NCBI RefSeq assembly: GCF_003334335.1
Contig: NZ_QOWQ01000007.1
Strand: one strand, 5' to 3'
DNA length: 64,000 nt
Source: Escherichia coli
GTDB lineage: Bacteria > Pseudomonadota > Gammaproteobacteria > Enterobacterales > Enterobacteriaceae
The position numbers were made by a program, and so were the translations under genes. The notes under the pieces are model-generated. The model did not search any database. It saw only the letters and a program-made list of their open reading frames with translations, and was not told where the DNA came from. How positions within the stretch are numbered: the first letter of the stretch is position 1; every line of letters starts with the position of its first letter. Below, one piece after another: positions 17,658-48,079 of this stretch.

Positions 17658-17662
17658 TACAT

Positions 17663-19069: not shown

Positions 19070-19815
19070 TGCGAATTTCTATTATCACAGCTACTTATAA
19101 TAGTGAAAAAACTCTCCTTGATACATTACTTTCTCTAGAAAAGCAAACGCATCCAGATATTGAATATATAGTTGTAGATGGAGCATCGAAAGATAATACA
19201 ATTAAGCTGATTAAGAGTAATTGTACAAAAGTTTCAAAAATCATTTGCGAACCCGATAAGGGCATTTATGATGCTCTGAATAAAGGTATTCAAGCAGCTT
19301 CGGGTGATGTTATTGGTTTTTTACATTCTGATGACTTATTTGCTTATGATGATGCTATTGCAGATATAGCAAAAACATTTGAAAGTACAGGATGTGATGC
19401 TATTTATGGCGATTTGGAGTACGTTGCCCAAAATGATACGACTAAACGTATTAGATTATGGAAAAGTGGTTCATTTAGTCGTTTCAAGATGAAAGTGGGT
19501 TGGATGCCGCCACACCCATCATTTTATATGAAACGCGAATGTTATAGTCAGTTTGGTAGTTTTTCTTTAGATTATCGAATATCTGCTGATTATGACTCAT
19601 TATTACGATATATTTTAAAACAACGTATTTCGATAGCATATTTACCAAAAGTCTTAGTGAAGATGCGTGTTGGTGGAATTAGCAATCGTTCAGTATCTTC
19701 AATGGCCAAGAAGTCAATGGAAGACATTCGTATTATGAAACAGAATGGTATTATCTGGCCACTTGCTTTAGCGTATAAAAATATATCCAAACTTCCTCAA
19801 TTTATTAAAAAGTAA
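19069..19815 (+). CDS. Glycosyltransferase family 2
   Basis: 248 aa; MRISIITATYNSEKTLLDTLLSLEKQTHPDIEYIVVDGASKDNT is a typical GT2 N-terminus with DxD-type region. Confidence 0.8.
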   Translation: MRISIITATYNSEKTLLDTLLSLEKQTHPDIEYIVVDGASKDNTIKLIKSNCTKVSKIICEPDKGIYDALNKGIQAASGDVIGFLHSDDLFAYDDAIADIAKTFESTGCDAIYGDLEYVAQNDTTKRIRLWKSGSFSRFKMKVGWMPPHPSFYMKRECYSQFGSFSLDYRISADYDSLLRYILKQRISIAYLPKVLVKMRVGGISNRSVSSMAKKSMEDIRIMKQNGIIWPLALAYKNISKLPQFIKK

Positions 19816-19820
19816 TCATC

Positions 19821-21245
19821 ATGTTAAATGTTAAAAAAATCATTAACGATAGTAATATTGCGTTCGGTACTAGTGGTGCTCGCGGTTTAGTGATCGATTT
19901 TTCCCATGATGTTTGTGCTGCGTTCACTCATGCGTTTCTTTCTGTTATTGATGACAAATACAATTTTAGTAAAGTTGCCTTAGCCATTGATAACCGCCCA
20001 AGTAGTTACGAAATTGCTCAGGCATGCGCGTATGCTATAAAACAACATGGATTCGAGGTTGAATATCATGGTGTAATTCCGACTCCTGCATTAGCTCATT
20101 ATTCGATGCAGAAAAACATTCCCTGCATAATGGTCACAGGGAGTCATATCCCTTTTGATCGTAATGGCTTAAAATTCTACAGACCTGATGGTGAAATCAC
20201 TAAAGAGGATGAGCTCGCAATTATAAATAGTGAGTATACATTTTCGCCTGTAGGTGAATTACCTCATCTTGAAACAAGCACTCAAGGTGCAGACTACTAC
20301 CTCGAACGTTATGTTTCTCTTTTTAATCCCGAGATTTTAAAGGGGAAAAGAATAGGGGTATATGAACATTCTAGTGCGGGACGCGATTTATATGCTCCTC
20401 TTTTTAATCAAATGGGTGCAGAGGTCATTTCCCTCGGTAGGAGTGATGAGTTCGTTCCGATTGATACGGAAGCAGTAAGCGATGAAGATCGTATACTTGC
20501 AAGAGAGTGGTCTAAAAAATATAATCTTGATGCTATTTTCTCAACAGATGGCGATGGTGATCGTCCTTTAGTTGCCGATGAAAATGGTGAATGGTTAAGA
20601 GGCGATATTCTGGGACTACTTACTGCTATTGAACTTAATATCAAGGCGTTGGCTATTCCAGTGAGTTGTAATACAGCAATTGAAGAGTCTAATAAATTTG
20701 CAAGTATACAACGAACGAAAATAGGTTCTCCTTATGTAATTGCAGCATTTGCAGATCTTGCTAAGCAATTTGATTCAGTCGCTGGTTTTGAAGCTAATGG
20801 TGGTTTTCTCCTTGCCTCCGATTTACAAATTAATGGCAAGGAATTAAAATCGTTACCTACACGAGATGCTGTGTTACCAGCATTAATGCTCTTAATAGCT
20901 TCTCGCAATAGTACTATTTCTCAACTGATTAATAATCTTCCTCAGCGATTCACTTGGTCAGATAGAGTTAAAAACCTCCCTTCAGATTCAAGTCAACAAA
21001 TTATAAAAAATGCCATATCGTCACCCAATAATTTCTTTAATAGTTTAGGTTATGAATCATTATCCTGTTCCGCTATTGATGAAACGGATGGTGCAAGATT
21101 TACTTTAAATAATGGTGATATTATACATCTCCGTCCTTCCGGTAATGCTCCAGAACTCCGTTGTTATGCTGAGGCCAGTGATGAAAATCAGGCTAAGCAA
21201 TATGTTACGAATGTGCTGGGAAATATTACCTCTTTGATTTCTTGA
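19821..21245 (+). CDS. manB: Phosphomannomutase / alpha-D-phosphohexomutase of the O-antigen cluster
   Basis: 474 aa; phosphohexomutase active-site-like TGSHIP motif; sequence clearly differs from the cpsG paralogue at the window start. Confidence 0.75.
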   Translation: MLNVKKIINDSNIAFGTSGARGLVIDFSHDVCAAFTHAFLSVIDDKYNFSKVALAIDNRPSSYEIAQACAYAIKQHGFEVEYHGVIPTPALAHYSMQKNIPCIMVTGSHIPFDRNGLKFYRPDGEITKEDELAIINSEYTFSPVGELPHLETSTQGADYYLERYVSLFNPEILKGKRIGVYEHSSAGRDLYAPLFNQMGAEVISLGRSDEFVPIDTEAVSDEDRILAREWSKKYNLDAIFSTDGDGDRPLVADENGEWLRGDILGLLTAIELNIKALAIPVSCNTAIEESNKFASIQRTKIGSPYVIAAFADLAKQFDSVAGFEANGGFLLASDLQINGKELKSLPTRDAVLPALMLLIASRNSTISQLINNLPQRFTWSDRVKNLPSDSSQQIIKNAISSPNNFFNSLGYESLSCSAIDETDGARFTLNNGDIIHLRPSGNAPELRCYAEASDENQAKQYVTNVLGNITSLIS

Positions 21246-21441
21246 TGTTATAGGTTTATCTACGCTTATATGTGTGCGTAGGTTTGATTACACGTAGATG
21301 CCGGTATACAGAATTGAAGAACGGTATTTGTTGCATTAATGAAATTCAGCACTACACACATTCGTGCAACTTGAGATAACATCTCAATCATATTCAAGTC
21401 GCGCATACATCGCGGTGACCACCCCCTGACAGGAGTAAACA

Positions 21442-22848
21442 ATGTCAAAGCAACAGATCGGCGTCGTCGGTATGGCAGTGATGGGGCGCAACCTTGCGCT
21501 CAACATCGAAAGCCGTGGTTATACCGTCTCTATTTTCAACCGTTCCCGTGAAAAGACGGAAGAAGTGATTGCCGAAAATCCAGGCAAGAAACTGGTTCCT
21601 TACTATACGGTGAAAGAGTTTGTTGAATCTCTGGAAACGCCTCGTCGCATCCTGTTAATGGTGAAAGCAGGTGCAGGCACGGATGCTGCTATTGATTCCC
21701 TCAAACCATATCTCGATAAAGGCGACATCATCATTGATGGTGGTAACACCTTCTTCCAGGACACCATCCGTCGTAATCGTGAGCTTTCTGCAGAAGGCTT
21801 TAACTTCATCGGTACCGGTGTCTCCGGCGGTGAAGAAGGTGCGCTGAAAGGTCCTTCCATTATGCCTGGTGGGCAGAAAGAAGCCTATGAGCTGGTTGCT
21901 CCGATCCTGACCAAAATCGCCGCAGTGGCTGAAGACGGTGAGCCATGCGTTACCTATATTGGTGCTGATGGTGCAGGTCACTATGTGAAGATGGTTCACA
22001 ACGGTATTGAATACGGTGATATGCAGCTGATTGCTGAAGCCTATTCTCTGCTTAAAGGTGGCCTGAACCTCACCAACGAAGAACTGGCGCAGACGTTTAC
22101 CGAGTGGAATAACGGTGAACTAAGCAGCTACCTGATCGACATCACCAAAGATATCTTCACCAAAAAAGATGAAGACGGTAACTACCTGGTTGATGTGATT
22201 CTGGATGAAGCAGCAAACAAAGGTACTGGCAAATGGACCAGCCAGAGTGCGCTGGATCTCGGTGAACCGCTGTCGCTTATTACCGAGTCTGTGTTTGCAC
22301 GTTATATCTCTTCTCTGAAAGAGCAGCGTGTTGCCGCATCTAAAGTTCTCTCTGGCCCGCAAGCACAGCCAGCAGGCGACAAGGCTGAGTTCATCGAAAA
22401 AGTTCGCCGTGCGCTGTATCTGGGCAAAATCGTTTCTTACGCTCAGGGCTTCTCTCAGCTACGCGCCGCGTCTGAAGAGTACAACTGGGATCTGAACTAC
22501 GGTGAAATCGCGAAGATTTTCCGTGCTGGCTGCATCATCCGTGCACAGTTCCTGCAGAAAATCACCGATGCATATGCCGAAAATCCGCAGATCGCTAACC
22601 TGCTGCTGGCTCCGTACTTCAAGGAAATTGCCGATGACTACCAGCAGGCGCTGCGCGATGTCGTCGCTTATGCAGTACAGAACGGTATCCCGGTTCCGAC
22701 CTTCGCCGCTGCGGTTGCCTATTACGATAGCTACCGTGCCGCTGTTCTGCCTGCGAACCTGATCCAGGCACAGCGTGACTATTTCGGTGCGCATACTTAT
22801 AAGCGCATTGATAAAGAAGGTGTGTTCCATACTGAATGGCTGGATTAA
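21442..22848 (+). CDS. gnd: 6-phosphogluconate dehydrogenase, decarboxylating
   Basis: 468 aa; [27 protein letters not shown]...; canonical right flank of the O-antigen cluster. Confidence 0.97.
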
Positions 22849-22877
22849 TCTGATTTAAATCAATTAATCAATGCAAG

Positions 22878-22906
22878 GCCCGGAGAAACCCTCCGGGCTT
22901 TTTTAT
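22878..22906 (+). terminator. Rho-independent terminator after gnd
   Basis: gcccggag-aaac-ctccgggc hairpin followed by a T8 run. Confidence 0.75.
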
Positions 22907-23104
22907 TATACAAAGCGGCAGGTTATGGCCTTTTTTTATAATTTATGGTTAAAAAAGCGATATAATACAGAGCCGCACAGCAGGATCGCTGTCTTGACAG
23001 TTCAACCGCATCAGCGTTAAAAATCCCGCAGTACGCAGTAGATGAAGTTGTGGTGGTGGACTAATGACCACTCTAAATGTTTTAACCGGAAGAAGTCAGA
23101 GCTA

Positions 23105-24271
23105 ATGAAAATAACAATTTCAGGAACAGGTTATGTTGGTCTTTCAAATGGTATTCTGATTGCGCAAAACCACGAAGTGGTTGCACTGGATATCGTTCAG
23201 GCCAAAGTTGACATGCTTAACAAGAAGCAGTCACCGATTGTTGATAAGGAGATTGAAGAGTATCTGGCGACTAAAGATCTCAATTTCCGCGCTACGACAG
23301 ATAAGTATGACGCGTATAAAAATGCCGATTACGTTATTATTGCCACACCTACCGATTATGATCCGAAAACAAATTATTTTAATACCTCAAGCGTGGAAGC
23401 GGTCATTCGCGATGTGACAGAAATTAATCCCAACGCGGTAATGGTGATTAAATCTACAATTCCGGTAGGTTTCACCAAATCAATTAAAGAACGTCTGGGT
23501 ATCGATAACCTTATTTTCTCTCCGGAATTTCTCCGTGAAGGTAAAGCCCTTTACGATAATCTCCATCCTTCACGTATTGTCATTGGTGAGCGTTCAGAAC
23601 GCGCAGAACGTTTCGCTGCGTTATTACAGGAAGGAGCGATTAAGCAAAATATCCCGACCCTGTTTACCGACTCCACTGAAGCAGAAGCGATTAAACTTTT
23701 TGCAAACACCTACCTGGCGATGCGCGTGGCGTACTTTAACGAACTGGATAGCTACGCAGAAAGTTTAGGTCTGAATTCCCGTCAAATAATCGAAGGCGTT
23801 TGTCTCGACCCACGAATTGGCAACCATTACAACAATCCGTCGTTTGGTTATGGTGGTTATTGTCTGCCGAAAGATACCAAGCAGTTACTGGCGAACTACC
23901 AGTCTGTGCCGAATAACCTGATTTCGGCAATTGTCGATGCTAACCGCACACGTAAAGACTTTATTGCCGATGCCATTTTGTCACGCAAACCGCAAGTGGT
24001 GGGTATTTATCGTCTGATTATGAAGAGCGGGTCAGATAACTTCCGTGCGTCTTCCATTCAGGGGATTATGAAACGTATCAAGGCGAAAGGCGTTGAAGTG
24101 ATCATCTACGAACCGGTGATGAAAGAAGATTCATTCTTCAACTCTCGCCTGGAACGTGATCTCGCCACCTTCAAACAACAAGCCGACGTCATTATCTCCA
24201 ACCGTATGGCAGAAGAGCTTAGGGATGTGGCAGATAAGGTATACACCCGCGATCTTTTTGGCAGCGACTAA
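23105..24271 (+). CDS. ugd: UDP-glucose 6-dehydrogenase
   Basis: [29 protein letters not shown]...; ATG at 23105 gives 388 aa. Confidence 0.95.
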
Positions 24272-24414
24272 CATCCTGTTATCAGGGCGATTTTCGCCCT
24301 GATTCTCTTATGTTCCCTTTGTAATAATTCATTATTTTTATCATTTATCCTATAGCATTCATGGCGATTATCGCTAAACTATGGCGACTTAAAATTATTT
24401 CGTCCGTTAGGGTA

Positions 24415-25395
24415 ATGATGAGAGTAGAAAATAATAATGTTTCTGGGCAAAACCATGACCCGGAACAGATTGATTTGATTGATTTACTGGTGCAGTTGTG
24501 GCGTGGCAAGATGACAATTATCATCTCTGTCATTGTTGCTATTGCCCTGGCTATAGGGTATCTGGCCGTTGCCAAAGAAAAGTGGACTTCCACAGCTATC
24601 GTTACTCAACCTGATGTGGGGCAAATCGCTGGTTATACCAACGCGATGAATGTGATTTACGGATCGGCTGTACCGAAAGTCTCCGACATTCAGGCTTCAC
24701 TTATCGGACGTTACAGCACTGCATTTTCAGCATTAGCGGAAACGCTGGATAACCAGGAAGAAGCAGAGAAGCTCACCATTGAGCCTACCGTCAAAAATCA
24801 GTCATTACCTTTAGCGGTGTCTTATGTTGGTGAAACACCTGAAGGTGCGCAGAAACAGCTGGCGAAGTATATCCAGCAAGTTGACGACCAGGTAAATGAA
24901 GAACTGGAAAAAGACCTGAAAGACAACATCGCGCTGCGTATGAAAAACTTGCAGGATTCTCTGAAAACTCAGGAAGTAGTTGCGCAGGAGCAGAAAGATC
25001 TGCGTATCCGTCAGATTCAGGAAGCGTTGCAGTATGCGAATCAGGCGCAGGTGACAAAGCCGCAGATTCAGCAGACACAGGACGTAACCCAAGATACTAT
25101 GTTCCTTTTGGGGAGCGAAGCGCTGGAGTCGATGATTAAGCACGAGGCGACTCGTCCGTTGGTGTTCTCATCAAACTACTATCAGACTCGTCAAAACCTG
25201 CTGGATATCGACAATCTTGACGTTGATAAACTTGATATTCATGCTTACCGCTATGTAATGAAACCGACGTTACCTATTCGTCGCGATAGCCCGAAAAAGG
25301 CAATTACCTTGATTCTGGCGGTGCTGCTGGGCGGCATGGTTGGCGCGGGGATTGTGTTGGGGCGTAACGCTCTGCGTAATTACAACGCGAAGTAA
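24415..25395 (+). CDS. wzzB: O-antigen chain-length determinant (Wzz/Cld)
   Basis: MMRVENNNVSGQNHDPEQIDLIDLLVQLWRGK..., two TM segments flanking a coiled-coil-rich periplasmic region; ~326 aa. Confidence 0.92.
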   Translation: MMRVENNNVSGQNHDPEQIDLIDLLVQLWRGKMTIIISVIVAIALAIGYLAVAKEKWTSTAIVTQPDVGQIAGYTNAMNVIYGSAVPKVSDIQASLIGRYSTAFSALAETLDNQEEAEKLTIEPTVKNQSLPLAVSYVGETPEGAQKQLAKYIQQVDDQVNEELEKDLKDNIALRMKNLQDSLKTQEVVAQEQKDLRIRQIQEALQYANQAQVTKPQIQQTQDVTQDTMFLLGSEALESMIKHEATRPLVFSSNYYQTRQNLLDIDNLDVDKLDIHAYRYVMKPTLPIRRDSPKKAITLILAVLLGGMVGAGIVLGRNALRNYNAK

Positions 25396-25490: not shown

Positions 25491-26095
25491 TCACTGATGC
25501 CGTTTGCGCAGGTTCTCAATCACCGTCGTTAAATCCAGATCCTGATCCTGCAACAGCACCAGCAGGTGATACATCAAGTCAGATGCCTCGTTGGTCAGCT
25601 CAAAGCGGTCATGTACCGTTGCTGCCAGTGCGGTTTCCACCCCTTCTTCACCCACTTTCTGCGCAATGCGTTTGGTGCCGCTGGCATACAGTTTGGCGGT
25701 GTAGGAGGTTTCCGGGTCGGCTGATTTGCGTTCGGCGAGCAGTTGTTCCAGTTGATACAGAAACAGCCACTGGTGAGCAGTTTCGCCGAAGCAGCTGCTG
25801 GTGCCTTTATGGCAGGTTGGTCCGATAGGATTCGCCAGTACCAGTAGCGTGTCGTTGTCGCAGTCCGGCGCAATATTTACTACGTTGAGGAAATTGCCCG
25901 ACGTTTCGCCTTTGGTCCACAGTCGCTGTTTAGTGCGCGAGAAGAAAGTGACTTTGCCGCTTTCGATGGTTTTGTCTAAGGCTTCCGGGTTCATATAGCC
26001 CAGCATTAACACTTCGCCGGATACCGCGTGTTGCACAATCACCGGCATAAGTCCGTCGGTTTTTTCCCAGTCCAGTTCGCGGCGTTGTTGTTCTG

Positions 26096-26102
<7 letters not shown>
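25491..26102 (-). CDS. hisI: Bifunctional phosphoribosyl-AMP cyclohydrolase / phosphoribosyl-ATP pyrophosphatase
   Basis: 203 aa; last gene of the his operon. Confidence 0.96.
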
Positions 26103-28180
<2,078 letters not shown>

Positions 28181-28181
<1 letters not shown>

Positions 28182-29247
28182 TACAGCACTCCTTTCGACG
28201 AGGGCAGGGTGTCGCCTTCCACGCGGATGGCCTGGCGCAGGGTGCGACCAAAGGCTTTAAAGAGACTCTCAACACGGTGGTGATCGTTTTTACCTTTGGT
28301 TTTCAGGTGTAGCGTCACGCCCATGGTGTATGAGAGCGAACGGAAGAAGTGCTCGATCATTTCGGTGCTGAGATCGCCCACGCGCTGGTAGGTAAACTCG
28401 GCTTTATATTCCAGGTGCGGGCGACCAGAGATATCCAGCGCGCAGCGGGCAAGGCATTCGTCCATCGGCAGTACAAAACCAAAGCGGCAAATACCGCGTT
28501 TGTCGCCAAGAGCAATTTTTAATGCTTCGCCCAGCGCCAGGCCGGTATCTTCGACAGTGTGGTGATCGTCGATATAGAGGTCGCCTTTGACGTTGATTTC
28601 CATGCGGAAACCGCCGTGGGTGGCGATCTGATCCAGCATATGATCAAAGAAGCCAACGCCGGTGTTAATCTTGCTGCCACCTTCGCGATCCAGCCATACC
28701 TGGACGTCAATTTGCGTCTCTTTGGTGTTGCGCACTACATGGGCGTAACGGTCTCGTTTAGTGAGTTGCTCGCCAATCATCGGCCAGTTCAGGATTTCGC
28801 GGTCGTAGCGTAAACCATTAATGCCCATGTTTTCCGCCAGTTGAATGTCGGTCGCGCGATCGCCAATCACATAACTGTTAGCGCGATCCATCGCTTGCTC
28901 AGCCAGATAACGTTCCACCAGTTTTACTTTCGGCTTACGGCAGTCGCACTCATCGGCGGGCAGGTGCGGACAAATCAGCACTTCATCAAACTGTACGCCT
29001 TGCGAGGTGAAGATCTGCATCATCAGGTTGTGCGGGCCATCGAAATCCGCCTGTGGGAAACTTTGTGTTCCCAGACCATCCTGATTAGTGATCATCACCA
29101 GCTTGTAGCCCGCTTTTTGCAGCTTCAGCAGTTCCGGGATCACGCCCGGTTCAAAGGCGAGTTTATCAAAACGGTCCACCTGAAAATCACTCGGCGGTTC
29201 GCTAATCAGGGTTCCATCGCGATCGATAAAAAGATACTTCTGACTCA

Positions 29248-29248
<1 letters not shown>
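28181..29248 (-). CDS. hisB: Bifunctional histidinol-phosphatase / imidazoleglycerol-phosphate dehydratase
   Basis: [19 protein letters not shown]... 355 aa. Confidence 0.96.
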
Positions 29249-31619
<2,371 letters not shown>

Positions 31620-31624
31620 GGCGA

Positions 31625-32524
31625 TCACTCCATCATCTTCTCAATCGGCAGGACCAGAATCGAACTGGCACCCAGCGCTTTCAGTTTTTCCATCGTTTCC
31701 CAGAACAGGGTTTCGCTACTGACCATGTGCATCGCTACGCGTTGTTGGTCACCCGCCAGCGGCAGAATGGTTGGGCGTTCGGCACCTGGCAGCAGGGCGA
31801 TGACTTCATCCAGACGTTCGGTCGGTGCGTGCATCATGATGTATTTTGATTCGCGCGCCTGGATCACACCCTGAATACGGGTCAGCAGTTTGTCGATCAG
31901 TTGCTGTTTGGATTCTTCCATTTCGCCATCGCGCTGGATCAGGCAGGCTTTCGAGCGGTAGATAACTTCGACTTCGCGCAGGCCGTTTGCTTCCAGCGTG
32001 GCACCGGTGGAAACCAGATCGCAAATCGCATCCGCCAGTCCGGCGCGCGGGGCGACTTCAACAGAACCGTTCAGTAAGCAGGATTTAAAAGAGATGCCTT
32101 TCTGGTCGAGATATCGCTTGAGCAGGTGAGGATAAGAGGTGGCGATACGTTTACCGTTTAAGGAGAGCGGGCCGTCCCAGGCTTCATCAACCGGCGTTGC
32201 CAGCGAAAGGCGACAACCGCCGAAATCCAGACGACGCAGGGTAAAGTAGCGTGGATCCTCACCCTGGGCGCGGCGGTTAAGCAGCTCTTCTTCCAGCACG
32301 TTTTCGCCGATAATCCCAAGGTCTACTACGCCATCCATTACCAGACCGGGAATGTCGTCGTCACGTACGCGTAGAATATCAATCGGCATGTTTTCTGCCA
32401 TCGCGATCAGGCGCTGGGTGTGAAGATTGATTTTAATACCACAGCGCGCCAGTAATTCGCGTGAGTCATCACTTAAACGGCCGGATTTCTGCATAGCTAT
32501 GCGTAAACGAGAGTTGTCTGTCAT
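31625..32524 (-). CDS. hisG: ATP phosphoribosyltransferase
   Basis: [20 protein letters not shown]... 299 aa from the internal Met of the ORF. Confidence 0.96.
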
Positions 32525-32571
32525 TTTGTTATTCCTCTTTAAACCTGTCTGAACCGTTATCAACCGCGCAA

Positions 32572-32610
32572 TAAAAAAGCCCCCGGAAGGTGATCTTCCG
32601 GGGGCTTTCT
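32572..32610 (-). terminator. his attenuator (leader terminator hairpin)
   Basis: On the minus strand gcccccggaag...cttccgggggc hairpin followed by a U-run, between hisL and hisG. Confidence 0.85.
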
Positions 32611-32669
32611 CATGCGTTCATGCACCACTGGAAGATCTGAATGTCTTCCAGCACACATCGCCTGAAAGA

Positions 32670-32720
32670 CTAGTCAGGATGATGGTGATGATGGTGGTGT
32701 TTAAATTGAACGCGTGTCAT
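32670..32720 (-). CDS. hisL: his operon leader peptide (MTRVQFKHHHHHHHPD)
   Basis: Reverse complement of 32670-32720 reads ATG ACA CGC GTT CAA TTT AAA CAC CAC CAT CAT CAC CAT CAT CCT GAC TAG; seven consecutive His codons. Confidence 0.95.
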   Translation of the reverse strand: MTRVQFKHHHHHHHPD

Positions 32721-32969
32721 AAAAGTCTCTGTGAATGTTTATTCAACTGATGTCTTTTAACCTAAACCACTTTCACGTTAGAAAGCAAGGGCTTTTTTAT
32801 ATATTTTATGGCGATGGATTTGTTTAATGAATGAGCGGGGAAAGGAGGGGGCTAAGAGGACTGTCCTCTAAGCTGACGGCACCAAAAATAGCGAAGCCTG
32901 GATTTTCGTCTCACTGACAATACCTTGATCTACAAACTAATTAATAAATAGTTAATTAACGCCCATCAT

Positions 32970-32987
32970 TGTACAATGAACTGTACA
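32970..32987 (+). promoter_or_regulatory. yefM-yoeB operator (TGTACA repeats) overlapping the promoter
   Basis: ttgtacaatgaactgtacaa immediately upstream of the yefM RBS (gaggag) and ATG at 33003. Confidence 0.6.
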
Positions 32988-33002
32988 AAAGAGGAGATTG
33001 AC

Positions 33003-33254
33003 ATGCGTACAATTAGCTACAGCGAAGCGCGTCAGAATTTGTCGGCAACAATGATGAAAGCCGTTGAAGATCATGCCCCGATCCTTATTACTCGTCAGAA
33101 TGGAGAGGCTTGTGTTCTGATGTCACTCGAAGAATACAACTCGCTGGAAGAGACGGCTTATCTACTGCGTTCCCCCGCTAACGCCCGGAGATTGATGGAC
33201 TCAATCGATAGCCTGAAATCAGGCAAAGGAACAGAAAAGGACATTATTGAGTGA
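33003..33254 (+). CDS. yefM: Antitoxin YefM (Phd/YefM family)
   Basis: [70 protein letters not shown]...; 83 aa. Confidence 0.95.
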
Positions 33255-33505
33255 AACTAATCTGGTCTGAGGAATCATGGGATGATTATCTGTACTGGCA
33301 GGAAACAGATAAGCGAATTGTTAAAAAGATCAATGAACTTATCAAAGATACCCGCAGAACGCCATTTGAAGGTAAGGGGAAGCCAGAACCCCTGAAACAT
33401 AATTTGTCAGGTTTCTGGTCCCGACGCATTACAGAGGAGCACCGTCTGGTATACGCGGTTACCGACGATTCACTGCTCATTGCAGCATGTCGTTATCATT
33501 ATTGA
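33251..33505 (+). CDS. yoeB: Toxin YoeB (ribosome-dependent mRNA interferase)
   Basis: [70 protein letters not shown]...; 4-nt overlap with yefM. Confidence 0.95.
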
Positions 33506-33587
33506 ACAGATTCATTCATAGAATGAATTGTCAGTTTTGATACGCTAGCGTAGCCTTATAGATCTAAGGTGTATCAGGAGATAACGG

Positions 33588-35387: not shown

Positions 35388-35653
35388 AGAAAAATTATTA
35401 TGACAAGCCTCTCATTCTCTTGTCATTTCCCCCCCATTTAGGCACAATGCGCCGCTGTCAAAAAATGACTAAAAACCGACGTTTCATCAGCGTCGGTTAT
35501 TTTTTGCTTCAAACCAATCATTCATACCAAGAGGCCGGGCTTCGTACCGGATAGATATTTACTAAAAATCGACAGTTGTTGTCGCTGAGGAATCCAAAAA
35601 AATGGGGCAATTTTTTGCTTACGCGACGGTTATCACCGTAAAGGAGAATGACC

Positions 35654-38532: not shown

Positions 38533-39960
38533 TTAGACGATCTCTTCCGCGTACTGCCAAAGCGCTTTTAACAGCGCCACTTTCTCTTTGTCATCGGCAT
38601 ATTGTTGTGCCAGCATCTGCAATTCATCTGCATAACCCTGTAAAAACTCTGGCGTGAAGACCTGGCGGCGGTGCTCCAGCCAGCGTTGCTGCTCGGCATA
38701 ATCCAGCGTCCCCGGGAAGTTGCGCGCCCGATAATTGAACAACAGCTTTTCAATCCGTTTATCGACAAAAGTGATATCCAGTGCCGGTAAATTACGCGGC
38801 TCGGTTTCCAGCACAATTTTCATTGCTGCACGATCGGCGTCACTGAAAAAGCCGTTATAAAGCTGTGCATCCACGTTATCTGAAGGCGTAAACGGTTCGG
38901 CTTCCGCGAATATCGCCACCACTTTTTCGCGCACTTGCGGATTTTCACGCAGAATTTTCAGGTTATCGAGGCAATGCTGACGATTAATTCCCAGTCGGTC
39001 GGCATCTTCCGGGCGTAGCGTATTCGCCTGGGCCAGCACCGGACATTTATTGATATGCACCAGCTTAACCGGAACGGCGGCGTTATCGCCAAGATCGGTT
39101 TTTGCGGTATATAAACGCTCGCGCAATGTGTCGCTATCCAGTTCCAGTAATGGCGAAATGTCTCCTGCCAAATCCACCATAATTACGGCATTGCGATTTT
39201 CAGGATGCCACGCCAGCGGTGCCACCCAGCTGGTATTGCCGCGCCATGCTCCAAACATTCCGGAAACGTGCACCAGGGGTTTCATCTGCGGAACATCAAT
39301 CAACGCCATCAGTTTGTGTTTATTACGATGGGTAAAGAGATAATCAAACAGGCGTGGCTGACGCGTTTTTACCAGCTTTGCCATCGCAATAGTGGCGTAC
39401 ACATCAGCCATCGCATCGTGGGCGTTGCTATGTTCAATACCATTCGCTTTGGTTAAATGCTCAAGGCGAAAGCTCGGTAGACCGTCATCATTTTCAGGCC
39501 AGTTTATTCCTTCCGGGCGCAGGGCATAACAGGCACGCATAACATCCAACAAATCCCAGCGCGAGTTATCATGCTGCCAGCTCCAGGCGTAAGGATCGTA
39601 GAAATTACGATAAAAAACGTTGCGTGTGACTTCGTCGTCGAAACGCACATTGTTGTAGCCCAGAATACAGGTCTTCGGTACGGTAAAAAGCGAGTGAATA
39701 CGGGCGGCAAACGCGGCTTCGTTTTCTCCTTTCGCCCGTGCTTCCTGCGGGGTAATACCGGTAATTAATACTGCTCCAGGCTGGGGTAAATAGTCATCCG
39801 CGGGCTTGCAGTAAAAGACTTCGGGTTCGCCGATGACATTGAATTCGCTATCGGTGCGAATGGCTGCGAACTGTGCAGGGCGATCTAACGCGGGGTGCGT
39901 GCCAAAGGTTTCGTAATCGTGAAACAAAAAGGTAGATTGTTGCTTACCGTCATTCATCAT
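38533..39960 (-). CDS. sbcB: Exodeoxyribonuclease I
   Basis: MMNDGKQQSTFLFHDYETFGTHPALDRPAQFAAIRTD...; 475 aa from the internal Met. Confidence 0.95.
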   Translation of the reverse strand: MMNDGKQQSTFLFHDYETFGTHPALDRPAQFAAIRTDSEFNVIGEPEVFYCKPADDYLPQPGAVLITGITPQEARAKGENEAAFAARIHSLFTVPKTCILGYNNVRFDDEVTRNVFYRNFYDPYAWSWQHDNSRWDLLDVMRACYALRPEGINWPENDDGLPSFRLEHLTKANGIEHSNAHDAMADVYATIAMAKLVKTRQPRLFDYLFTHRNKHKLMALIDVPQMKPLVHVSGMFGAWRGNTSWVAPLAWHPENRNAVIMVDLAGDISPLLELDSDTLRERLYTAKTDLGDNAAVPVKLVHINKCPVLAQANTLRPEDADRLGINRQHCLDNLKILRENPQVREKVVAIFAEAEPFTPSDNVDAQLYNGFFSDADRAAMKIVLETEPRNLPALDITFVDKRIEKLLFNYRARNFPGTLDYAEQQRWLEHRRQVFTPEFLQGYADELQMLAQQYADDKEKVALLKALWQYAEEIV

Positions 39961-40168
39961 TAGGTTAAATCCGTTATTTCTGCTGTCTGCCAGAGTATCA
40001 AATATCACCGTGCTAATCAGCTTTAGCGCCACAATTTGGCAGCGAGTGGCAACAGATCATGTCAGATAAAAATGAGAGGGTAGTCACATTTTCTTGCACT
40101 TTATTCCAGCCAGTTCATAAGTATTTCCGTAAAAAGAACAGCTATTTGAAACTCCTGAGGGTTTGCTG

Positions 40169-41335
40169 TTGAAACGCCGTCTTATTATTGCTGCTTCTTT
40201 GTTCGTTTTTAACTTATCGTCTGGTTTTGCGGCGGATAACATTCCTTTTTCACCTCAGCCTCCAGAGATTCATGCCGGGTCCTGGGTATTGATGGATTAC
40301 ACCACCGGTCAGATCCTCACCGCGGGTAATGAGCATCAACAGCGCAATCCCGCCAGCCTGACAAAGCTGATGACGGGTTATGTCGTGGATCGCGCTATCG
40401 ATAGTCATCGCATTACGCCAGACGATATTGTCACCGTGGGGCGCGATGCGTGGGCGAAAGATAATCCGGTGTTTGTCGGTTCTTCACTGATGTTTTTGAA
40501 AGAGGGCGATCGCGTATCGGTACGTGATTTAAGCCGTGGTTTAATTGTGGATTCCGGAAATGACGCTTGTGTTGCTCTGGCTGACTATATTGCCGGTGGG
40601 CAACGGCAGTTTGTTGAAATGATGAACAACTATGCCGAGAAGCTGCATCTCAAGGATACGCATTTTGAAACAGTGCATGGTCTGGATGCACCTGGCCAGC
40701 ATAGCTCGGCTTATGATTTAGCTGTGCTTTCTCGCGCTATCATCCACGGCGAGCCCGAGTTTTATCATATGTACAGTGAGAAAAGTCTCACCTGGAACGG
40801 TATCACCCAGCAAAACCGTAACGGGTTGTTGTGGGATAAAACCATGAATGTTGACGGCCTGAAAACGGGTCATACTTCTGGTGCCGGGTTTAATCTCATT
40901 GCTTCGGCTGTAGATGGGCAGCGTCGTCTCATTGCAGTGGTAATGGGGGCTGACAGTGCAAAAGGTCGTGAGGAAGAGGCAAGAAAATTACTGCGTTGGG
41001 GGCAACAAAACTTTACTACGGTGCAAATTTTGCACCGTGGGAAAAAGGTCGGAACGGAACGCATCTGGTATGGCGATAAAGAAAATATCGACCTGGGAAC
41101 GGAACAAGAGTTCTGGATGGTGCTACCGAAAGCCGAAATTCCACATATCAAAGCCAAATATACCCTTGATGGTAAAGAGCTCACCGCGCCAATTAGCGCC
41201 CATCAGCGGGTAGGGGAAATTGAACTTTACGACCGTGATAAACAGGTGGCGCACTGGCCGCTGGTTACCCTGGAATCTGTCGGGGAAGGCGGCATGTTTT
41301 CCCGCCTGAGTGATTATTTCCACCATAAGGCCTGA
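40169..41335 (+). CDS. dacD: D-alanyl-D-alanine carboxypeptidase (PBP6b)
   Basis: Signal peptide, SxxK motif (ASLTK); apparent TTG start at 40169 gives 388 aa. Confidence 0.9.
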   Translation: MKRRLIIAASLFVFNLSSGFAADNIPFSPQPPEIHAGSWVLMDYTTGQILTAGNEHQQRNPASLTKLMTGYVVDRAIDSHRITPDDIVTVGRDAWAKDNPVFVGSSLMFLKEGDRVSVRDLSRGLIVDSGNDACVALADYIAGGQRQFVEMMNNYAEKLHLKDTHFETVHGLDAPGQHSSAYDLAVLSRAIIHGEPEFYHMYSEKSLTWNGITQQNRNGLLWDKTMNVDGLKTGHTSGAGFNLIASAVDGQRRLIAVVMGADSAKGREEEARKLLRWGQQNFTTVQILHRGKKVGTERIWYGDKENIDLGTEQEFWMVLPKAEIPHIKAKYTLDGKELTAPISAHQRVGEIELYDRDKQVAHWPLVTLESVGEGGMFSRLSDYFHHKA

Positions 41336-41419
41336 CCTTTCTTTTGCAGCAGACTGGCAGGAGTGCGAGTCTGCTCGCATAATCAACACTCATTCCTTGT
41401 GGTTTTAATATTGCAACTA

Positions 41420-41439
41420 TACTGTATATAAAAACAGTG
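41420..41439 (+). promoter_or_regulatory. LexA box (SOS operator) in the sbmC promoter
   Basis: tACTGTATATAaAaACAGTg matches the CTGT-N8-ACAG LexA consensus, 15 nt upstream of the sbmC ATG. Confidence 0.8.
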
Positions 41440-41453
41440 TTAATGGAGGCGTC

Positions 41454-41927
41454 ATGAACTACGAGATTAAGCAGGAAGATAAACGTACCGTTGCAGGTTT
41501 CCATCTCGTTGGCCCGTGGGAGCAGACGGTAAAGAAAGGTTTTGAGCAGTTGATGATGTGGGTAGATAACAAAAATATTGTGCCGAAGGAGTGGGTTGCT
41601 GTCTATTACGACAATCCAGATGAAACACCCGCCGAAAAATTACGCTGCGACACCGTCGTGACGGTACCGAATAACTTTACGCTCCCCGAAAACAGTGAGG
41701 GCGTCATTCTGACAGAAATTTCAGGTGGTCAGTATGCGGTTGCGGTGGCTCGTGTAGTCGGTGATGATTTTGCTAAACCTTGGTATCAGTTCTTTAATAG
41801 CCTCTTGCAGGACAGTGCTTATGAAATGTTACCAAAGCCCTGCTTCGAGGTTTATTTGAACAATGGCGCGGAAGATGGGTACTGGGATATCGAAATGTAT
41901 GTTGCGGTGCAGCCAAAACATCACTAA
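41454..41927 (+). CDS. sbmC: DNA gyrase inhibitor (GyrI/SbmC)
   Basis: 157 aa; [37 protein letters not shown]... Confidence 0.93.
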
Positions 41928-42125
41928 TTCATCTCAGGGCGGTGTGTTAACGCGATGACCACTCTTTTTTTTGAAAGCGAAAAGAGTAAGATGCGCCTTT
42001 CAATTTTTTCGCTCCTGCCGGGAAATTACACTGTTCCCGGTTTGTCCGTCGGATAATTCAGAGGCGCGCCTTCTGGCCGACAGATGAGTTATGAGCGCTT
42101 TTAATCTTCATTACGGAGTTTCTGC

Positions 42126-43184
42126 GTGCGTGCCGATAAGTCATTAAGCCCGTTTGAAATCCGGGTATACCGCCATTACCGCATTGTGCATGGTACTCGG
42201 GTCGCGCTGGCATTCCTGCTCACTTTTCTCATTATCCGCCTGTTTACTATCCCGGAAAGTACCTGGCCGCTGGTCACCATGGTGGTGATTATGGGGCCAA
42301 TCTCGTTCTGGGGTAACGTTGTCCCTCGCGCCTTCGAACGTATTGGCGGTACGGTGTTGGGTTCGATATTAGGTCTTATCGCTCTGCAACTGGAGTTAAT
42401 CTCGTTACCGCTGATGTTAGTCTGGTGCGCGGCGGCTATGTTTCTTTGCGGTTGGCTGGCGCTGGGCAAGAAACCGTATCAAGGATTATTGATTGGGGTG
42501 ACGCTGGCAATTGTTGTTGGTTCCCCGACAGGTGAAATTGATACGGCGTTATGGCGAAGCGGCGATGTGATCCTCGGCTCTTTACTGGCAATGTTGTTTA
42601 CCGGTATCTGGCCACAACGGGCGTTCATCCACTGGCGCATTCAACTGGCGAAAAGTCTGACCGAGTATAATCGGGTCTATCAATCTGCATTCTCACCGAA
42701 CTTACTCGAACGCCCACGTCTGGAAAGCCATCTACAAAAACTCCTGACCGATGCCGTGAAAATGCGTGGGCTGATTGCGCCCGCCAGCAAAGAAACCCGT
42801 ATTCCAAAATCGATATATGAAGGTATCCAGACCATTAACCGCAATCTGGTTTGTATGCTGGAGTTGCAAATCAATGCGTACTGGGCCACGCGCCCCAGCC
42901 ATTTCGTGTTATTGAACGCGCAAAAACTTCGTGATACCCAGCACATGATGCAGCAAATACTGCTGAGCCTTGTTCATGCGTTGTACGAAGGTAATCCGCA
43001 GCCGGTTTTTGCCAATACGGAAAAATTGAACGATGCTGTGGAAGAGCTGCGTCAGTTGCTCAATAACCACCATGACCTGAAGGTTGTGGAAACACCAATC
43101 TATGGTTATGTGTGGCTGAACATGGAAACGGCACATCAGCTTGAGTTGCTATCGAATCTGATTTGCCGGGCCTTGCGCAAATAA
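42126..43184 (+). CDS. yeeA: Inner membrane protein YeeA (FUSC-like)
   Basis: 352 aa, GTG start; hydrophobic N-terminal half and soluble C-terminal half; synteny. Confidence 0.85.
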   Translation: MRADKSLSPFEIRVYRHYRIVHGTRVALAFLLTFLIIRLFTIPESTWPLVTMVVIMGPISFWGNVVPRAFERIGGTVLGSILGLIALQLELISLPLMLVWCAAAMFLCGWLALGKKPYQGLLIGVTLAIVVGSPTGEIDTALWRSGDVILGSLLAMLFTGIWPQRAFIHWRIQLAKSLTEYNRVYQSAFSPNLLERPRLESHLQKLLTDAVKMRGLIAPASKETRIPKSIYEGIQTINRNLVCMLELQINAYWATRPSHFVLLNAQKLRDTQHMMQQILLSLVHALYEGNPQPVFANTEKLNDAVEELRQLLNNHHDLKVVETPIYGYVWLNMETAHQLELLSNLICRALRK

Positions 43185-43355
43185 TTCCTGAACTTCAGAA
43201 TCATCTTGCTGCTGCTTCGATTCAGCAAGGATAAAGGGTATGATAGTGAAAAGGGATAAAAGCATTGTCATCTGCGGCAGCTATGAGTAATGTTGGCCCT
43301 AACGAATAGCGGTTGCTTAAACGAATCCGACTCTCACATTATCAGGGGTATAAAA

Positions 43356-43685
43356 ATGGAAACTACCAAGCCTTCATTCCAGGACGTACTGGAATTTGTT
43401 CGTCTGTTCCGTCGTAAGAACAAACTGCAACGTGAAATTCAGGACGTTGAGAAAAAGATCCGTGACAACCAGAAGCGCGTCCTGCTGTTGGACAACCTGA
43501 GCGATTACATCAAGCCGGGGATGAGCGTTGAAGCAATCCAGGGCATCATCGCCAGCATGAAAGGTGACTATGAAGATCGTGTTGACGATTACATCATCAA
43601 AAATGCCGAGCTCTCCAAAGAACGCCGTGATATCTCCAAAAAGCTGAAAGCTATGGGCGAAATGAAAAACGGCGAAGCGAAGTAA
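43356..43685 (+). CDS. yeeX: UPF0265/DUF496 family protein
   Basis: [41 protein letters not shown]... 109 aa from the internal ATG. Confidence 0.88.
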
Positions 43686-43699
43686 TTCCTGTTTTATTC

Positions 43700-43740
43700 A
43701 ATGAGGGTTGCCCGGCAACCCTCATTGCTCATTGATTCTT
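43700..43740 (+). terminator. Hairpin terminator after yeeX
   Basis: aatgagggttgcc-cgg-caaccctcatt hairpin followed by T-rich sequence. Confidence 0.5.
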
Positions 43741-43785
43741 TTCTGTGTATCAAAGTCATCATTCCCATCTGATAACCTGTCGAAA

Positions 43786-44061
43786 TTAGCGACAGACTTC
43801 TTCTATATGCAGCAAGGCAAAAAGTTCTGCAACTCTATTGTTATTAACCGCACTGGTTACTAACACGTTGTGCGCTCCAGCTTCCCGTAACCAACATTTC
43901 ACCAAAGATATTTGTTCCATGTTGGCTAAATCTGCTTTGGTTACTACTCCAATGACCGGGCGATTCATTGACGAGGTAAAGCCTGGCGAAAAAGGTGACC
44001 ACGGTGCGTCCGCATTAAGCACCAGCGCGATAATGTCTGCTTCGCAGGCACTGACCAACAA
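43786..44061 (-). pseudogene. yoeF: EutP/PduV-family GTPase, C-terminal fragment (yoeF-like remnant); N-terminal P-loop part missing
   Basis: 91 aa ORF with ...[12 protein letters not shown]... typical of EutP/PduV C-terminal halves; no P-loop-encoding sequence found upstream in any frame. Confidence 0.55.
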
Positions 44062-44420
44062 TGCACTGTAGAGGCTGCGGTTTTATCGGTGAGGAGTGGC
44101 AGCAAGATTTCCAGCCTCTTGATGGTGGGCCTGTGCAATCGTTATCAGATGCGTATAGCGATTATTCAGTGCTGCTATTGATAGCAGCTGAAAGCGAGAT
44201 ATCCGTACCAGAATGGCTCGCTCATTCTGAGGGAACGACGGTAATTTTGATTGCAGAACACAATGCCCGTTTGCTGACTGGTCCGGCTGGTGGGGCTGTA
44301 GCATTAATCCATTATCTGAATGAAATCTGTCATTCCAGAGAAACCGCTAGCAATGACGCATTTTGTCGGACGTTAACACGAGGAAGTCTGGCTATTCCGC
44401 AATGCCATCTTCTTTCGTAA
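44061..44420 (+). CDS. Hypothetical 119 aa ORF at the CP4-44 empty site; may be non-coding
   Basis: Only the open reading frame itself; no recognisable domain or convincing RBS. Confidence 0.2.
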
Positions 44421-44553
44421 TGGATTGAGAATGCTGGATTTTTAATTATATTACGCGCAGTATTAATCGCGTAAATGTTTTGCGGTCAGCAACGGTGGGG
44501 GATCCATTGTTCTGTTCAATGAATACCATCATACAATTGAATCAGGAGTCGGT

Positions 44554-45099
44554 ATGATGATTTTGGTGACGGGGGGCGCACGGAGCGGGAAGAGTCGCCA
44601 TGCAGAGGCGCTTATTGGGGACTCTTCACAGGTTCTGTATATCGCCACCTCACAAATCCTTGATGATGAGATGGCTGCACGGATAGAACATCATCGGCAA
44701 GGCCGCCCGGCGCACTGGCGCACGGTGGAGCGTTGGCAACATCTTGATGAATTAATTCATGCAGACATTAACCCGCATGAGGCTGTGTTGCTGGAATGCG
44801 TTACCACCATGGTGACTAATCTGTTGTTTGATTATGGCGGCGATAAAGACCCTAATGAATGGGATTATCAGGCGATGGAACAGGCGATTAATGCTGAGAT
44901 TCAGTCGTTGATTGCTGCCTGCCAACGTTGTCCCGCAAAGGTTGTATTAGTGACTAACGAAGTGGGAATGGGGATTGTGCCGGAGAGTCGTCTGGCACGA
45001 CATTTTCGTGATATTGCCGGGCGGGTAAATCAGCAGCTGGCCGCTGCGGCAAATGAAGTATGGCTGGTGGTTTCGGGTATTGGAGTAAAAATCAAATGA
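44554..45099 (+). CDS. cobU: Adenosylcobinamide kinase / adenosylcobinamide-phosphate guanylyltransferase
   Basis: 181 aa; P-loop [18 protein letters not shown]. Confidence 0.95.
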
Positions 45100-45839
45100 G
45101 TAAATTATTTTGGGCGATGCTCTCTTTTATTACGCGTCTGCCTGTACCGCGTCGCTGGTCCCAGGGACTGGATTTCGAGCATTATTCTCGCGGTATTATT
45201 ACTTTTCCTTTAATTGGATTATTGCTTGGCGCGATTAGCGGGCTGGTCTTCATGGTGCTGCAGGCATGGTGTGGCGTACCACTGGCGGCACTGTTTAGCG
45301 TACTTGTGCTGGCGCTGATGACCGGGGGATTCCACCTGGACGGCCTCGCCGATACCTGTGATGGCGTATTTTCTGCACGTAGCCGCGATCGCATGTTGGA
45401 AATCATGCGTGATAGCCGTTTAGGCACCCACGGCGGTCTGGCATTGATTTTTGTTGTACTGGCAAAGATTCTGGTATTAAGCGAGTTGGCTCTGCGTGGC
45501 GAACCGATCCTTGCATCGCTGGCGGCAGCATGTGCGGTCAGCCGCGGGACTGCCGCATTATTGATGTATCGTCATCGTTATGCCCGGGAAGAAGGGCTTG
45601 GCAATGTGTTCATTGGCAAAATTGATGGGCGACAAACCTGCGTCACACTCGGCTTAGCCGCTATTTTTGCTGCCGTATTATTGCCTGGTATGCATGGTGT
45701 GGCTGCTATGGTGGTGACGATGGTGGCGATTTTCATCCTCGGTCAGCTTCTCAAACGTACGCTGGGCGGGCAAACCGGCGATACGCTGGGAGCTGCTATA
45801 GAGCTTGGTGAACTGGTCTTCCTGCTGGCACTGCTATAA
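45096..45839 (+). CDS. cobS: Adenosylcobinamide-GDP ribazoletransferase (cobalamin synthase)
   Basis: [18 protein letters not shown]...; 247 aa membrane protein; ATGA overlap with cobU. Confidence 0.93.
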
Positions 45840-45850
45840 AGAGACGTGAC

Positions 45851-46930
45851 ATGCAAACACTTGCCGATTTACTGAATACGATCCCTGCCATCGATCCTGC
45901 CGCTATGTCGCGTGCACAACGGCATATCGACGGGTTACTCAAACCTGTTGGTAGCCTGGGAAGGCTGGAGGCGCTTGCCATACAACTGGCAGGAATGCCG
46001 GGGTTGAATGGCGTTCCGCATGTGGGCAAAAAAGCGGTACTGGTCATGTGTGCCGATCACGGCGTCTGGGAGGAAGGGGTCGCTATTTCCCCAAAAGAAG
46101 TGACAGCCATTCAGGCTGAAAATATGACCCGCGGAACAACCGGCGTGTATGTGCTGGCAGCACAAGCGGGCGCTAACGTCCACGTAATTGATGTTGGTAT
46201 TGATACTGCTGAGCCTATCCCCGGGCTTATCAACATGCGTGTTGCTCGAGGTAGTGGCAATATTGCTTCAGCTCCGGCAATGAGTCGCCATCAGGCTGAA
46301 AAGTTGCTTTTGGACGTCATATGTTATACGCGGGAGCTGGCAAAAAACGGTGTTACGCTGTTTGGTGTAGGTGAACTGGGGATGGCAAACACGACACCGG
46401 CCGCAGCAATAGTCAGCACAATCACTGGCCGGGATCCTGAAGAAGTGGTTGGGATTGGCGCAAACCTGCCGACAGATAAACTGGCTAATAAAATTGATGT
46501 TGTGCGCCGGGCGATTACGTTGAATCAACCAAATCCTCAGGATGGCGTTGATGTCCTGGCAAAAGTGGGTGGATTTGATTTGGTCGGAATGGCTGGCGTG
46601 ATGTTAGGCGCTGCTTCCTGCGGTTTACCCGTGTTGCTGGATGGATTTCTTTCTTATGCTGCCGCGCTCGCAGCCTGCCAGATGTCTCCTGCAATCAAAC
46701 CGTATCTCATTCCTTCTCACCTGTCGGCAGAAAAAGGGGCGCGTATTGCGCTGTCGCATTTGGGGCTGGAGCCTTATCTCAATATGGAGATGCGTTTAGG
46801 TGAGGGGAGTGGCGCAGCTCTGGCGATGCCCATCATCGAAGCTGCCTGTGCGATATATAACAACATGGGCGAACTTGCTGCCAGTAATATTGTTCTACCG
46901 GGGAATACGACTTCTGATTTGAACAGTTAA
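45851..46930 (+). CDS. cobT: Nicotinate-nucleotide--dimethylbenzimidazole phosphoribosyltransferase
   Basis: 359 aa; [32 protein letters not shown]... Confidence 0.95.
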
Positions 46931-46991
46931 AAACGAAAAGTCTGATAAAAGCTATACTTAACGGATAGCTTTCGCGACTTAGGAAAGGGAC

Positions 46992-47918
46992 ATGATGCGT
47001 CGTGTAAATATTCTTTGCTCATTTGCTCTGCTTTTTGCCAGCCATACTAGCCTGGCGGTAACTTATCCATTACCTCCAGAGGGTAGCCGTTTAGTGGGGC
47101 AGTCGTATACTGTAACTGTTCCTGATCACAATACCCAGCCGCTGGAGACTTTTGCCGCACAAAACGGGCAAGGGTTAAGTAACATGCTGGAAGCGAACCC
47201 GGGTGCTGATGTTTTCTTGCCGAAGTCTGGCTCGCAACTTACCATTCCGCAGCAACTGATTTTGCCCGCCACTGTTCGTAAAGGGATTGTGGTTAACGTC
47301 GCTGAGATGCGTCTTTATTACTACCCGCCAGACAGTAATACTGTGGAAGTCTTTCCTATTGGTATCGGCCAGGCTGGGCGAGAAACCCCGCGTAACTGGG
47401 TGACTACCGTTGAACGTAAACAAGAAGCTCCAACCTGGACGCCAACGCCGAACACTCGGCGCGAATATGCGAAACGAGGGGAGAGTTTGCCCGCATTTGT
47501 TCCTGCGGGTCCCGATAATCCCATGGGGCTGTACGCGATTTATATTGGCAGGTTGTATGCCATCCATGGTACCAATGCCAATTTTGGTATTGGGCTCCGG
47601 GTAAGTCAGGGCTGTATTCGTCTGCGCAATGACGATATCAAATATCTGTTTGATAATGTTCCTGTTGGAACGCGTGTGCAAATTATCGACCAGCCAGTAA
47701 AATACACCACTGAACCAGATGGCTCGAACTGGCTGGAAGTTCATGAGCCGCTGTCGCGCAATCGTGCAGAATATGAGTCTGACCGAAAAGTACCATTGCC
47801 GGTAACCCCATCTTTGCGGGCGTTTATCAACGGGCAAGAAGTTGATGTAAATCGCGCAAATGCTGCGTTGCAACGTCGATCGGGAATGCCTGTGAATATC
47901 AACCGTAACGGATTTTGA
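46992..47918 (+). CDS. ldtA: L,D-transpeptidase (ErfK/LdtA)
   Basis: Signal peptide plus YkuD-type L,D-transpeptidase domain (...[20 protein letters not shown]...). Confidence 0.92.
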
Positions 47919-48003
47919 CATTCAAAACGTCTGGTTTTTCGGTCTGTGTAAGCATTACGTCATGCAAAACTGGTTGTTTCGAATCATACAAATCATAATT
48001 TTC

Positions 48004-48030
48004 TTCTCATATGCGCATCTCTTATGAGCA
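48004..48030 (+). promoter_or_regulatory. Imperfect inverted repeat TtCTCATATG-N7-CTTATGAGCA upstream of the SorC-family regulator gene (candidate operator)
   Basis: Read directly; half-site resembles the TGCTCAT palindromes at 53066-53204. Confidence 0.35.
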
Positions 48031-48079
48031 TAATCGTTATACTCTTCTGATTTATACATGTTTGCTGATGACATGATCA

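Follow-up and report, generated by a model that had tools for sequence, protein, structure and literature searches.

The chromosomal yefM-yoeB operon of Escherichia coli has been described in detail at its promoter. Kedzierska et al. (PMC1802561) used primer extension to locate the transcription start in vivo, relative to which the yefM ATG is at +21 and a second, alternative ATG at −7, and obtained YefM and YefM-YoeB footprints on a long (L) repeat, 5'-TCATTGTACAATGA-3', plus a short (S) repeat that has a TGTACA core in common with L and lies 12 bp from it, centre to centre. A follow-up from 2020 (PMC7730913) gave a −35 sequence TaGttA, a 17-bp linker, a −10 sequence TAcAAT and G as the start base. 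On the protein side, roles have been assigned to residues of YoeB, including those of general base for Glu46 and general acid for His83 (PMC3814384), and the Lon dependence of YoeB as well as its activation at 42°C are summarised in PMC7167474, where yefM-yoeB is reported to be without fitness effect at 42°C. The benefit of chromosomal copies is still debated in the literature, and a published view holds that chromosomal toxin-antitoxin (TA) systems of type II belong to the accessory genome. A passage of PMC7167474, citing Fiedoruk 2015 and Ramisetty and Santhosh 2016, already describes TA content as differing among E. coli strains, including EDL933.

The locus studied here lies in a 64-kb stretch of E. 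coli DNA that was analysed at its full length (hereafter the window). The observed region runs from 32970, the first base of the first of two TGTACA hexamers, to 33505, the last base of the yoeB stop codon. It is almost certainly the chromosomal type II toxin-antitoxin operon yefM-yoeB of E. coli, intact and presumably functional, and the pair is thus an already known, ordinary feature. Its elements are the following.

32949..32954, + strand: −35 hexamer TAGTTA of the yefM-yoeB promoter (pyy), read directly, the −35 box of PMC7730913
17 bp from −35 to −10: linker, read directly, as in PMC7730913
32966..32979, no strand: L (long) operator palindrome TCATTGTACAATGA, primary YefM site, perfect at 14/14 positions, the DNase I-protected L repeat of PMC1802561
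32972..32977, + strand: −10 hexamer TACAAT, within the L palindrome, read directly
32982..32987, no strand: S (short) operator repeat TGTACA, its centre 12 bp from that of L, surrounding the transcription start
32983, + strand: transcription start (+1), a G, from the published numbering mapped onto the window (yefM ATG = +21, PMC1802561; start base G, PMC7730913)
32992..32996, + strand: Shine-Dalgarno sequence AGGAG, with a 6-nt gap to the yefM ATG at 33003, read directly
33003..33254, + strand: yefM, Phd/YefM-family antitoxin and predicted autorepressor, 83 aa, from ATG 33003 to TGA 33254, read directly
33251..33505, + strand: yoeB, predicted ribosome-dependent mRNA endoribonuclease toxin, 84 aa, from a GTG start to TGA 33505, read directly

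As in other type II toxin-antitoxin operons, the antitoxin gene (252 nt) lies upstream of the toxin gene (255 nt) on the + strand, both proteins are small and the two genes overlap. The 4-nt overlap announced by the first-pass annotation was read directly as GTGA at 33251..33254. Both frames are open, as had also been claimed, and their products match the chains of PDB entry 2A6Q from end to end (100% identity, YefM with chain A and YoeB with chain E); the YoeB sequence is also present in the ribosome complexes 4V8X, 6OTR, 6OXA and 6OXI. The profiles place YefM in the Phd/YefM antitoxin family (NCBIfam equivalog NF008499, 186.6 bits for a cutoff of 121, profile positions 1-83 of 83; Pfam PF02604, 7e-28) and YoeB, above the curated threshold and at full length, in the YoeB/Txe toxin family (NCBIfam TIGR02116, 132.8 bits for a cutoff of 51.8; Pfam PF06769, 3.1e-43; profile positions 1-80 of 80 in both). 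RefSeq calls yefM and yoeB with exactly these coordinates on identical DNA in thousands of E. coli genomes. Taken together, the crystal structure, the two equivalogs, the two Pfam families and the RefSeq annotation bear out the earlier description of the locus as a textbook yefM-yoeB pair. Inactivating substitutions in YoeB, which that description had proposed to look for, are not found in the translation: Glu46, Arg59, Arg65, His83 and Tyr84 are all there.

The DNA of the locus is equally ordinary, the 661 bases from 32900 to 33560 matching many complete E. coli genomes at 100% identity and K-12 at 99.2%. The alignment to K-12 yefM-yoeB that had been suggested as a check returned identical proteins and eight single-base differences in 911 aligned bases. 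Four of these are intergenic (32813, 32870, 32877 and 32963), and the other four, three in yefM and one in yoeB, are synonymous third-position changes. The operator repeats and the promoter hexamers are free of differences. The only one in the promoter region, a C for T at 32963 (position −20), is located in the spacer, 3 bp outside the L palindrome, and the C allele is found at 100% identity in many natural isolates. That every coding change relative to K-12 is synonymous indicates purifying selection and not decay.

When the data of PMC1802561 and PMC7730913 were mapped onto the window, every published promoter, operator and ribosome-binding-site element was found with the correct spacing. 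The TGTACA hexamers at 32970..32975, which form the core of the L palindrome, and at 32982..32987 fall precisely on the −10 box and the start of transcription. The two repeats just upstream of yefM that had been taken for its operator are thus, base for base, the published operator (PMC1802561, PMC7730913). Single TGTACA hexamers are not enriched in the 64-kb window (12 found, 12.9 expected), and no second pair with a 6-bp spacer exists in the 64 kb, not even with one mismatch tolerated (0.09 such pairs expected). At the sequence level, L covers the −10 box and S covers the start as in the footprinted K-12 operator, an arrangement that points to autorepression of yefM-yoeB in this strain. The promoter was placed via the published mapping (PMC1802561, PMC7730913); a consensus promoter scan missed it, the −35 box matching at only 3/6 positions. 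By analogy with txe, an antisense promoter was sought in yoeB, and the single consensus-like minus-strand site of that region (33345..33317) was dropped, 2.1 such sites being expected there by chance. A second close TGTACA pair (55540..55545 and 55564..55569, 24 bp start to start) was seen inside a PTS/sugar island of the window and is probably due to chance, given the 12 hexamers present.

The location next to the his leader, also claimed by the first-pass annotation, stands as well: the His leader (Rfam RF00514, 131.6 bits) occupies 32571..32694 on the minus strand, and hisL (32670..32720) and yefM are divergent, their start codons being separated by 282 bp. On either side the pair borders directly on core genes, namely hisL plus hisG and yeeZ plus yeeY. 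Among complete genomes, LR-29-1 is the closest; it runs colinear with the window and is 100% identical over 39001..64000; an apparent 6.2-kb length difference between the two was discarded as a BLAST artefact that had joined the paralogous gmd/fcl/manC/manB genes of the colanic-acid and O-antigen clusters. The layout of the window around the operon is as follows.

up to about 7760: colanic-acid genes, by colinearity with LR-29-1
3668..3738, − strand: naRNA4 (REP-derived), Rfam match above the gathering score, between wzxC and wcaK
about 7935..8828: galF
9086..9124, + strand: JUMPstart, Rfam match above the gathering score, ahead of the O-antigen cluster
about 9369..21245: rare O-antigen cluster
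after the O-antigen cluster: gnd, ugd and wzzB
about 25491..32524, − strand: his operon, ~7 kb
from 33003 onward: yefM-yoeB, yeeZ and yeeY
35433..35507, + strand: sRNA STnc240, Rfam match above the gathering score, between yeeY and yoeI/plaP

Several other traits of the window were noted in passing. The O-antigen cluster is rare, since a coverage of 80% or more of positions 1..25000 is reached by only 3 of the 5426 complete E. coli genomes, and it has a gmd-fcl-gmm-manC-manB set of its own, to which the upstream colanic-acid copies are paralogous. By colinearity with LR-29-1, the stretch at about 43786..44420 has nothing more than a 119-aa hypothetical ORF and a truncated EutP/PduV-family pseudogene; the CP4-44 prophage, which in the K-12 layout lies between yeeX (tmaR) and cobU, is absent. 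An island of ~9.3 kb (about 48092..57350), which we take to be missing from K-12, lies between ldtA and the tRNA-Asn gene at 57412..57484; its genes are for two PTS systems (galactitol-type IIA, IIB and IIC), RpiB/LacA, rpe, an SDR oxidoreductase, hxlB and two regulators. Three tRNA-Asn genes with identical scores begin at 57412, 59820 and 61641.

Looking at the distribution of the locus among complete E. coli genomes, we found that it comes in two forms. The edges of the TA cassette were obtained by alignment with O157:H7 and direct comparison.

32859..33507, + strand: cassette-specific DNA, ~650 bp

The cassette is present in 4212 of the 5426 genomes (~78%). In some 1200, O157:H7 among them, the match is limited to the 50 bases downstream of yoeB. 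In O157:H7, the DNA from 32859 to about 33507 is swapped for an unrelated segment of ~205-217 bp (2291..2507 of the comparison locus), with hisL, yeeZ and yeeY intact; this alternative segment contains the REP-like sequence GCCGGATGCGGCGTGAATGCCTTATC and is found at full length in 1197 genomes (~22%). The locus is therefore essentially biallelic, the two alleles accounting for 5409 of the 5426 genomes. We looked for a remnant of the yefM promoter and operator in the O157 segment: the best local alignment fell on the operator region, with a score of 16, which was reached by 48 of 500 shuffles, and when the alignment was restricted post hoc to the non-coding part, the score was still reached by 10 of 500 shuffles and was not significant. 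The idea of a cassette remnant in the O157 allele was thus rejected, as shuffled sequences reach the same score. The hairpin at the left cassette edge (AGAGGAC-T-GTCCTCT, 32855..32869) folds no better than shuffled sequence, and the hairpins at the two edges were dropped as recombination or terminator signals, with z between −1.1 and −1.25 and the right one common to both alleles.

Outside this chromosomal site, yefM-yoeB cassettes with 74-86% DNA identity were found on large, mostly IncF-type plasmids of Salmonella (pIncFII.1), Citrobacter (an IncF plasmid), E. marmotae (pEM148), Enterobacter cloacae (an IncF plasmid) and Pantoea (pEuc2), where they adjoin traT/traD, type III secretion chaperone genes, gsp genes or an IS110 transposase. 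In these five homologues, YoeB is 80-95% identical and its catalytic residues are invariant. The L palindrome is conserved at 14/14 positions in four of the five, and the sequence further upstream cannot be aligned; the S repeat is looser (AGTACA, TGAACA or TGTATT), with the GTACA half kept in 3/5. Homology stops exactly at the yoeB stop codon. Since L is kept, the flanks are unrelated and the homology ends at this codon, the conserved and exchangeable unit is the promoter/operator together with both genes. These sharp borders of plasmid homology, along with the allele counts, agree with the view of chromosomal type II TA systems as part of the accessory genome. A scan of species-representative genomes for the exact operator returned five loci, in E. 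whittamii, three Pectobacterium and one Rhodobacteraceae MAG, and no E. coli among the matches. In the E. whittamii locus (2060..2993), YefM and YoeB are identical to those of the window and occupy the same site between the His leader and yeeZ, and the cassette at the his-yeeZ site thus extends beyond E. coli sensu stricto. No His leader was found next to the operator in the two of the three Pectobacterium loci that were examined.

Three readings of the locus other than an intact, ordinary TA operon were considered. According to the ORF track, yefM would start at ATG 32976 and encode a longer protein of 92 aa. Such an ORF does exist, open and in frame both in the window and in E. whittamii, and an older proposal of the equivalent start codon is mentioned in PMC1802561. 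Its ATG, however, lies inside the L palindrome, of which it forms part of the right arm, and overlaps the −10 box; it corresponds to position −7, upstream of both the primer-extension start and the −3 start mapped in vitro, and overexpression of yefM including this codon gave a product starting at +21 (PMC1802561). It also lacks a Shine-Dalgarno sequence, whereas AGGAG is found 6 nt ahead of ATG 33003, and the short form is the one used by RefSeq and covered by the NF008499 profile (1-83 of 83). Among the five plasmid homologues, the N-terminal extension is out of frame in two and without start codon in one. Because ATG 32976 lies upstream of the mapped starts, the product begins at +21 and the extension is broken in some homologues, the 92-aa reading is extremely improbable, in line with the doubt already expressed about this ORF, and the 83-aa yefM starting at 33003 is well founded as the right one for this strain. 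It could also be argued that the pair is a decaying remnant which merely looks intact, its expression or toxicity being lost in this strain. The cassette is indeed dispensable, being missing from 22% of E. coli genomes, and chromosomal TA decay is known in some E. coli lineages, an example being ccdO157, cited in a passage of PMC7167474. Nevertheless, not a single amino acid differs from the K-12 proteins, which are active in experiments, the four differences in coding DNA all fall on third positions and are synonymous, and promoter hexamers, operator repeats and ribosome-binding site are the same as in K-12, so that we give decay hardly any credit compared with an intact operon.

The last reading goes back to the remark that TA modules next to accessory regions can stabilise neighbouring DNA, and would make the module an addiction or stabilisation element that guards the O-antigen, colanic-acid and his region from deletion. 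Axe-Txe, a plasmid-borne member of the family, stabilises replicons. Close relatives of yefM-yoeB reside on large IncF-type plasmids, for which a stabilisation role, as on replicons, is plausible, and the window does hold a rare O-antigen cluster (at least 80% of 1..25000 is covered in only 3/5426 genomes). In contrast, the immediate neighbours of the chromosomal pair are the core genes hisL, hisG, yeeZ and yeeY; the nearest hypervariable DNA, the O-antigen cluster, has its end at about 21245, which leaves ~11.7 kb to the operator, with gnd, ugd, wzzB and the whole his operon, essential for biosynthesis, in between; and 1197 of 5426 genomes are without the cassette yet have hisL, yeeZ and yeeY intact. 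Moreover, the two alleles show that the 650-bp cassette itself is replaceable through homologous recombination in its flanks. To our knowledge, no experiment shows stabilisation by the chromosomal yefM-yoeB copy. We therefore did not retain the remark: with core genes as flanks, the O-antigen cluster beyond the ~7-kb his operon, and his and yeeZ flanks kept in the 1197 cassette-free genomes, a guardian function is very unlikely, and yefM-yoeB should not be taken to mark or guard the O-antigen region nearby.

Coming back to yefM-yoeB as an intact TA operon, we examined the 82 bp between yoeB and yeeZ (33506..33587) and detected no intrinsic terminator on the + strand. The only hairpin in this gap, ATTCATTC-ATA-GAATGAAT at 33510..33528, is AT-rich, has a z of −1.25 relative to shuffled sequence and belongs to the flank common to cassette-free strains. 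As no convincing terminator precedes yeeZ, read-through from the TA promoter would be possible, and one may speculate, with a low probability of being right, that the yefM-yoeB transcript extends into yeeZ and that the TA cassette thereby rewires yeeZ in a strain-dependent manner. If this were true, the SDR oxidoreductase gene yeeZ would be partly under YefM-YoeB autorepression and under Lon- or heat-triggered derepression in ~78% of E. coli, and free of TA control in the ~22% with the REP-like allele. The main value of the result lies in correct annotation, that is, an intact and well-characterised TA module in this strain with a yefM of 83 aa.

The way in which the operon would work can be drawn from K-12, where the steps are established for identical proteins and an identical operator; we infer them for this strain. 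A single sigma-70 promoter with a weak −35 and a good −10 (TAGTTA, 17 bp, TACAAT) would start transcription at G 32983, and yefM and yoeB would be translated from one mRNA, with the GTGA overlap suggesting translational coupling. A YefM dimer is expected to bind one YoeB and to hold its catalytic site inactive. YefM alone and, more avidly, the YefM2-YoeB complex would occupy L over the −10 box first and then S at the transcription start, which would sterically exclude RNA polymerase and repress the operon. Upon Lon overproduction or at 42°C, YefM would be degraded by Lon (PMC7167474), and free YoeB would enter the A site of the 70S ribosome and cut the mRNA behind the second nucleotide of the codon in that site, Glu46 acting as general base and His83 as general acid (PMC3814384). 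Given the identity to the YefM2-YoeB crystal complex 2A6Q and the literature in PMC7167474, YoeB of this strain is probably neutralised by direct contact with labile YefM, a Lon substrate, and, when free, it should cause ribosome-dependent mRNA cleavage and growth arrest.

Compared with known systems, the operon is closest to K-12 yefM-yoeB (b2017/b4539; 2A6Q), with which it shares the protein sequences, the gene order, the 4-nt overlap, the −35 and −10 sequences, the L and S repeats with their spacing, the ribosome-binding site and the location between hisL and yeeZ, and from which it differs by eight single bases in 911, none of them in the operator repeats or promoter hexamers. The plasmid-borne cassettes of Enterobacterales have the same architecture, overlap and gene lengths (252/255 nt), with L over the promoter, but differ by a DNA identity of 74-86%, a degenerate S repeat and wholly different flanks. 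Axe-Txe of the Enterococcus faecium plasmid pRUM is a homologous antitoxin/toxin pair whose TGTACA cores are likewise 12 bp apart; however, the L repeat of pRUM is found within the promoter spacer, its −10 sequence is only partly overlapped by S, repression is less strong and there are extra promoters, pat2 and internal ones (PMC7730913). More distantly, YoeB has its fold and the cleavage of mRNA in the ribosomal A site in common with the mRNA interferases of the RelBE/RelE superfamily, although its match to the NCBIfam RelE/StbE profile is weak (23 bits, below cutoff). Within this superfamily, YoeB keeps the canonical Glu/His acid-base pair and has a weak ribosome-independent activity (PMC3814384), and the antitoxin of the window, unlike that of RelBE, belongs to the Phd/YefM family (PF02604) and not to the RelB family.
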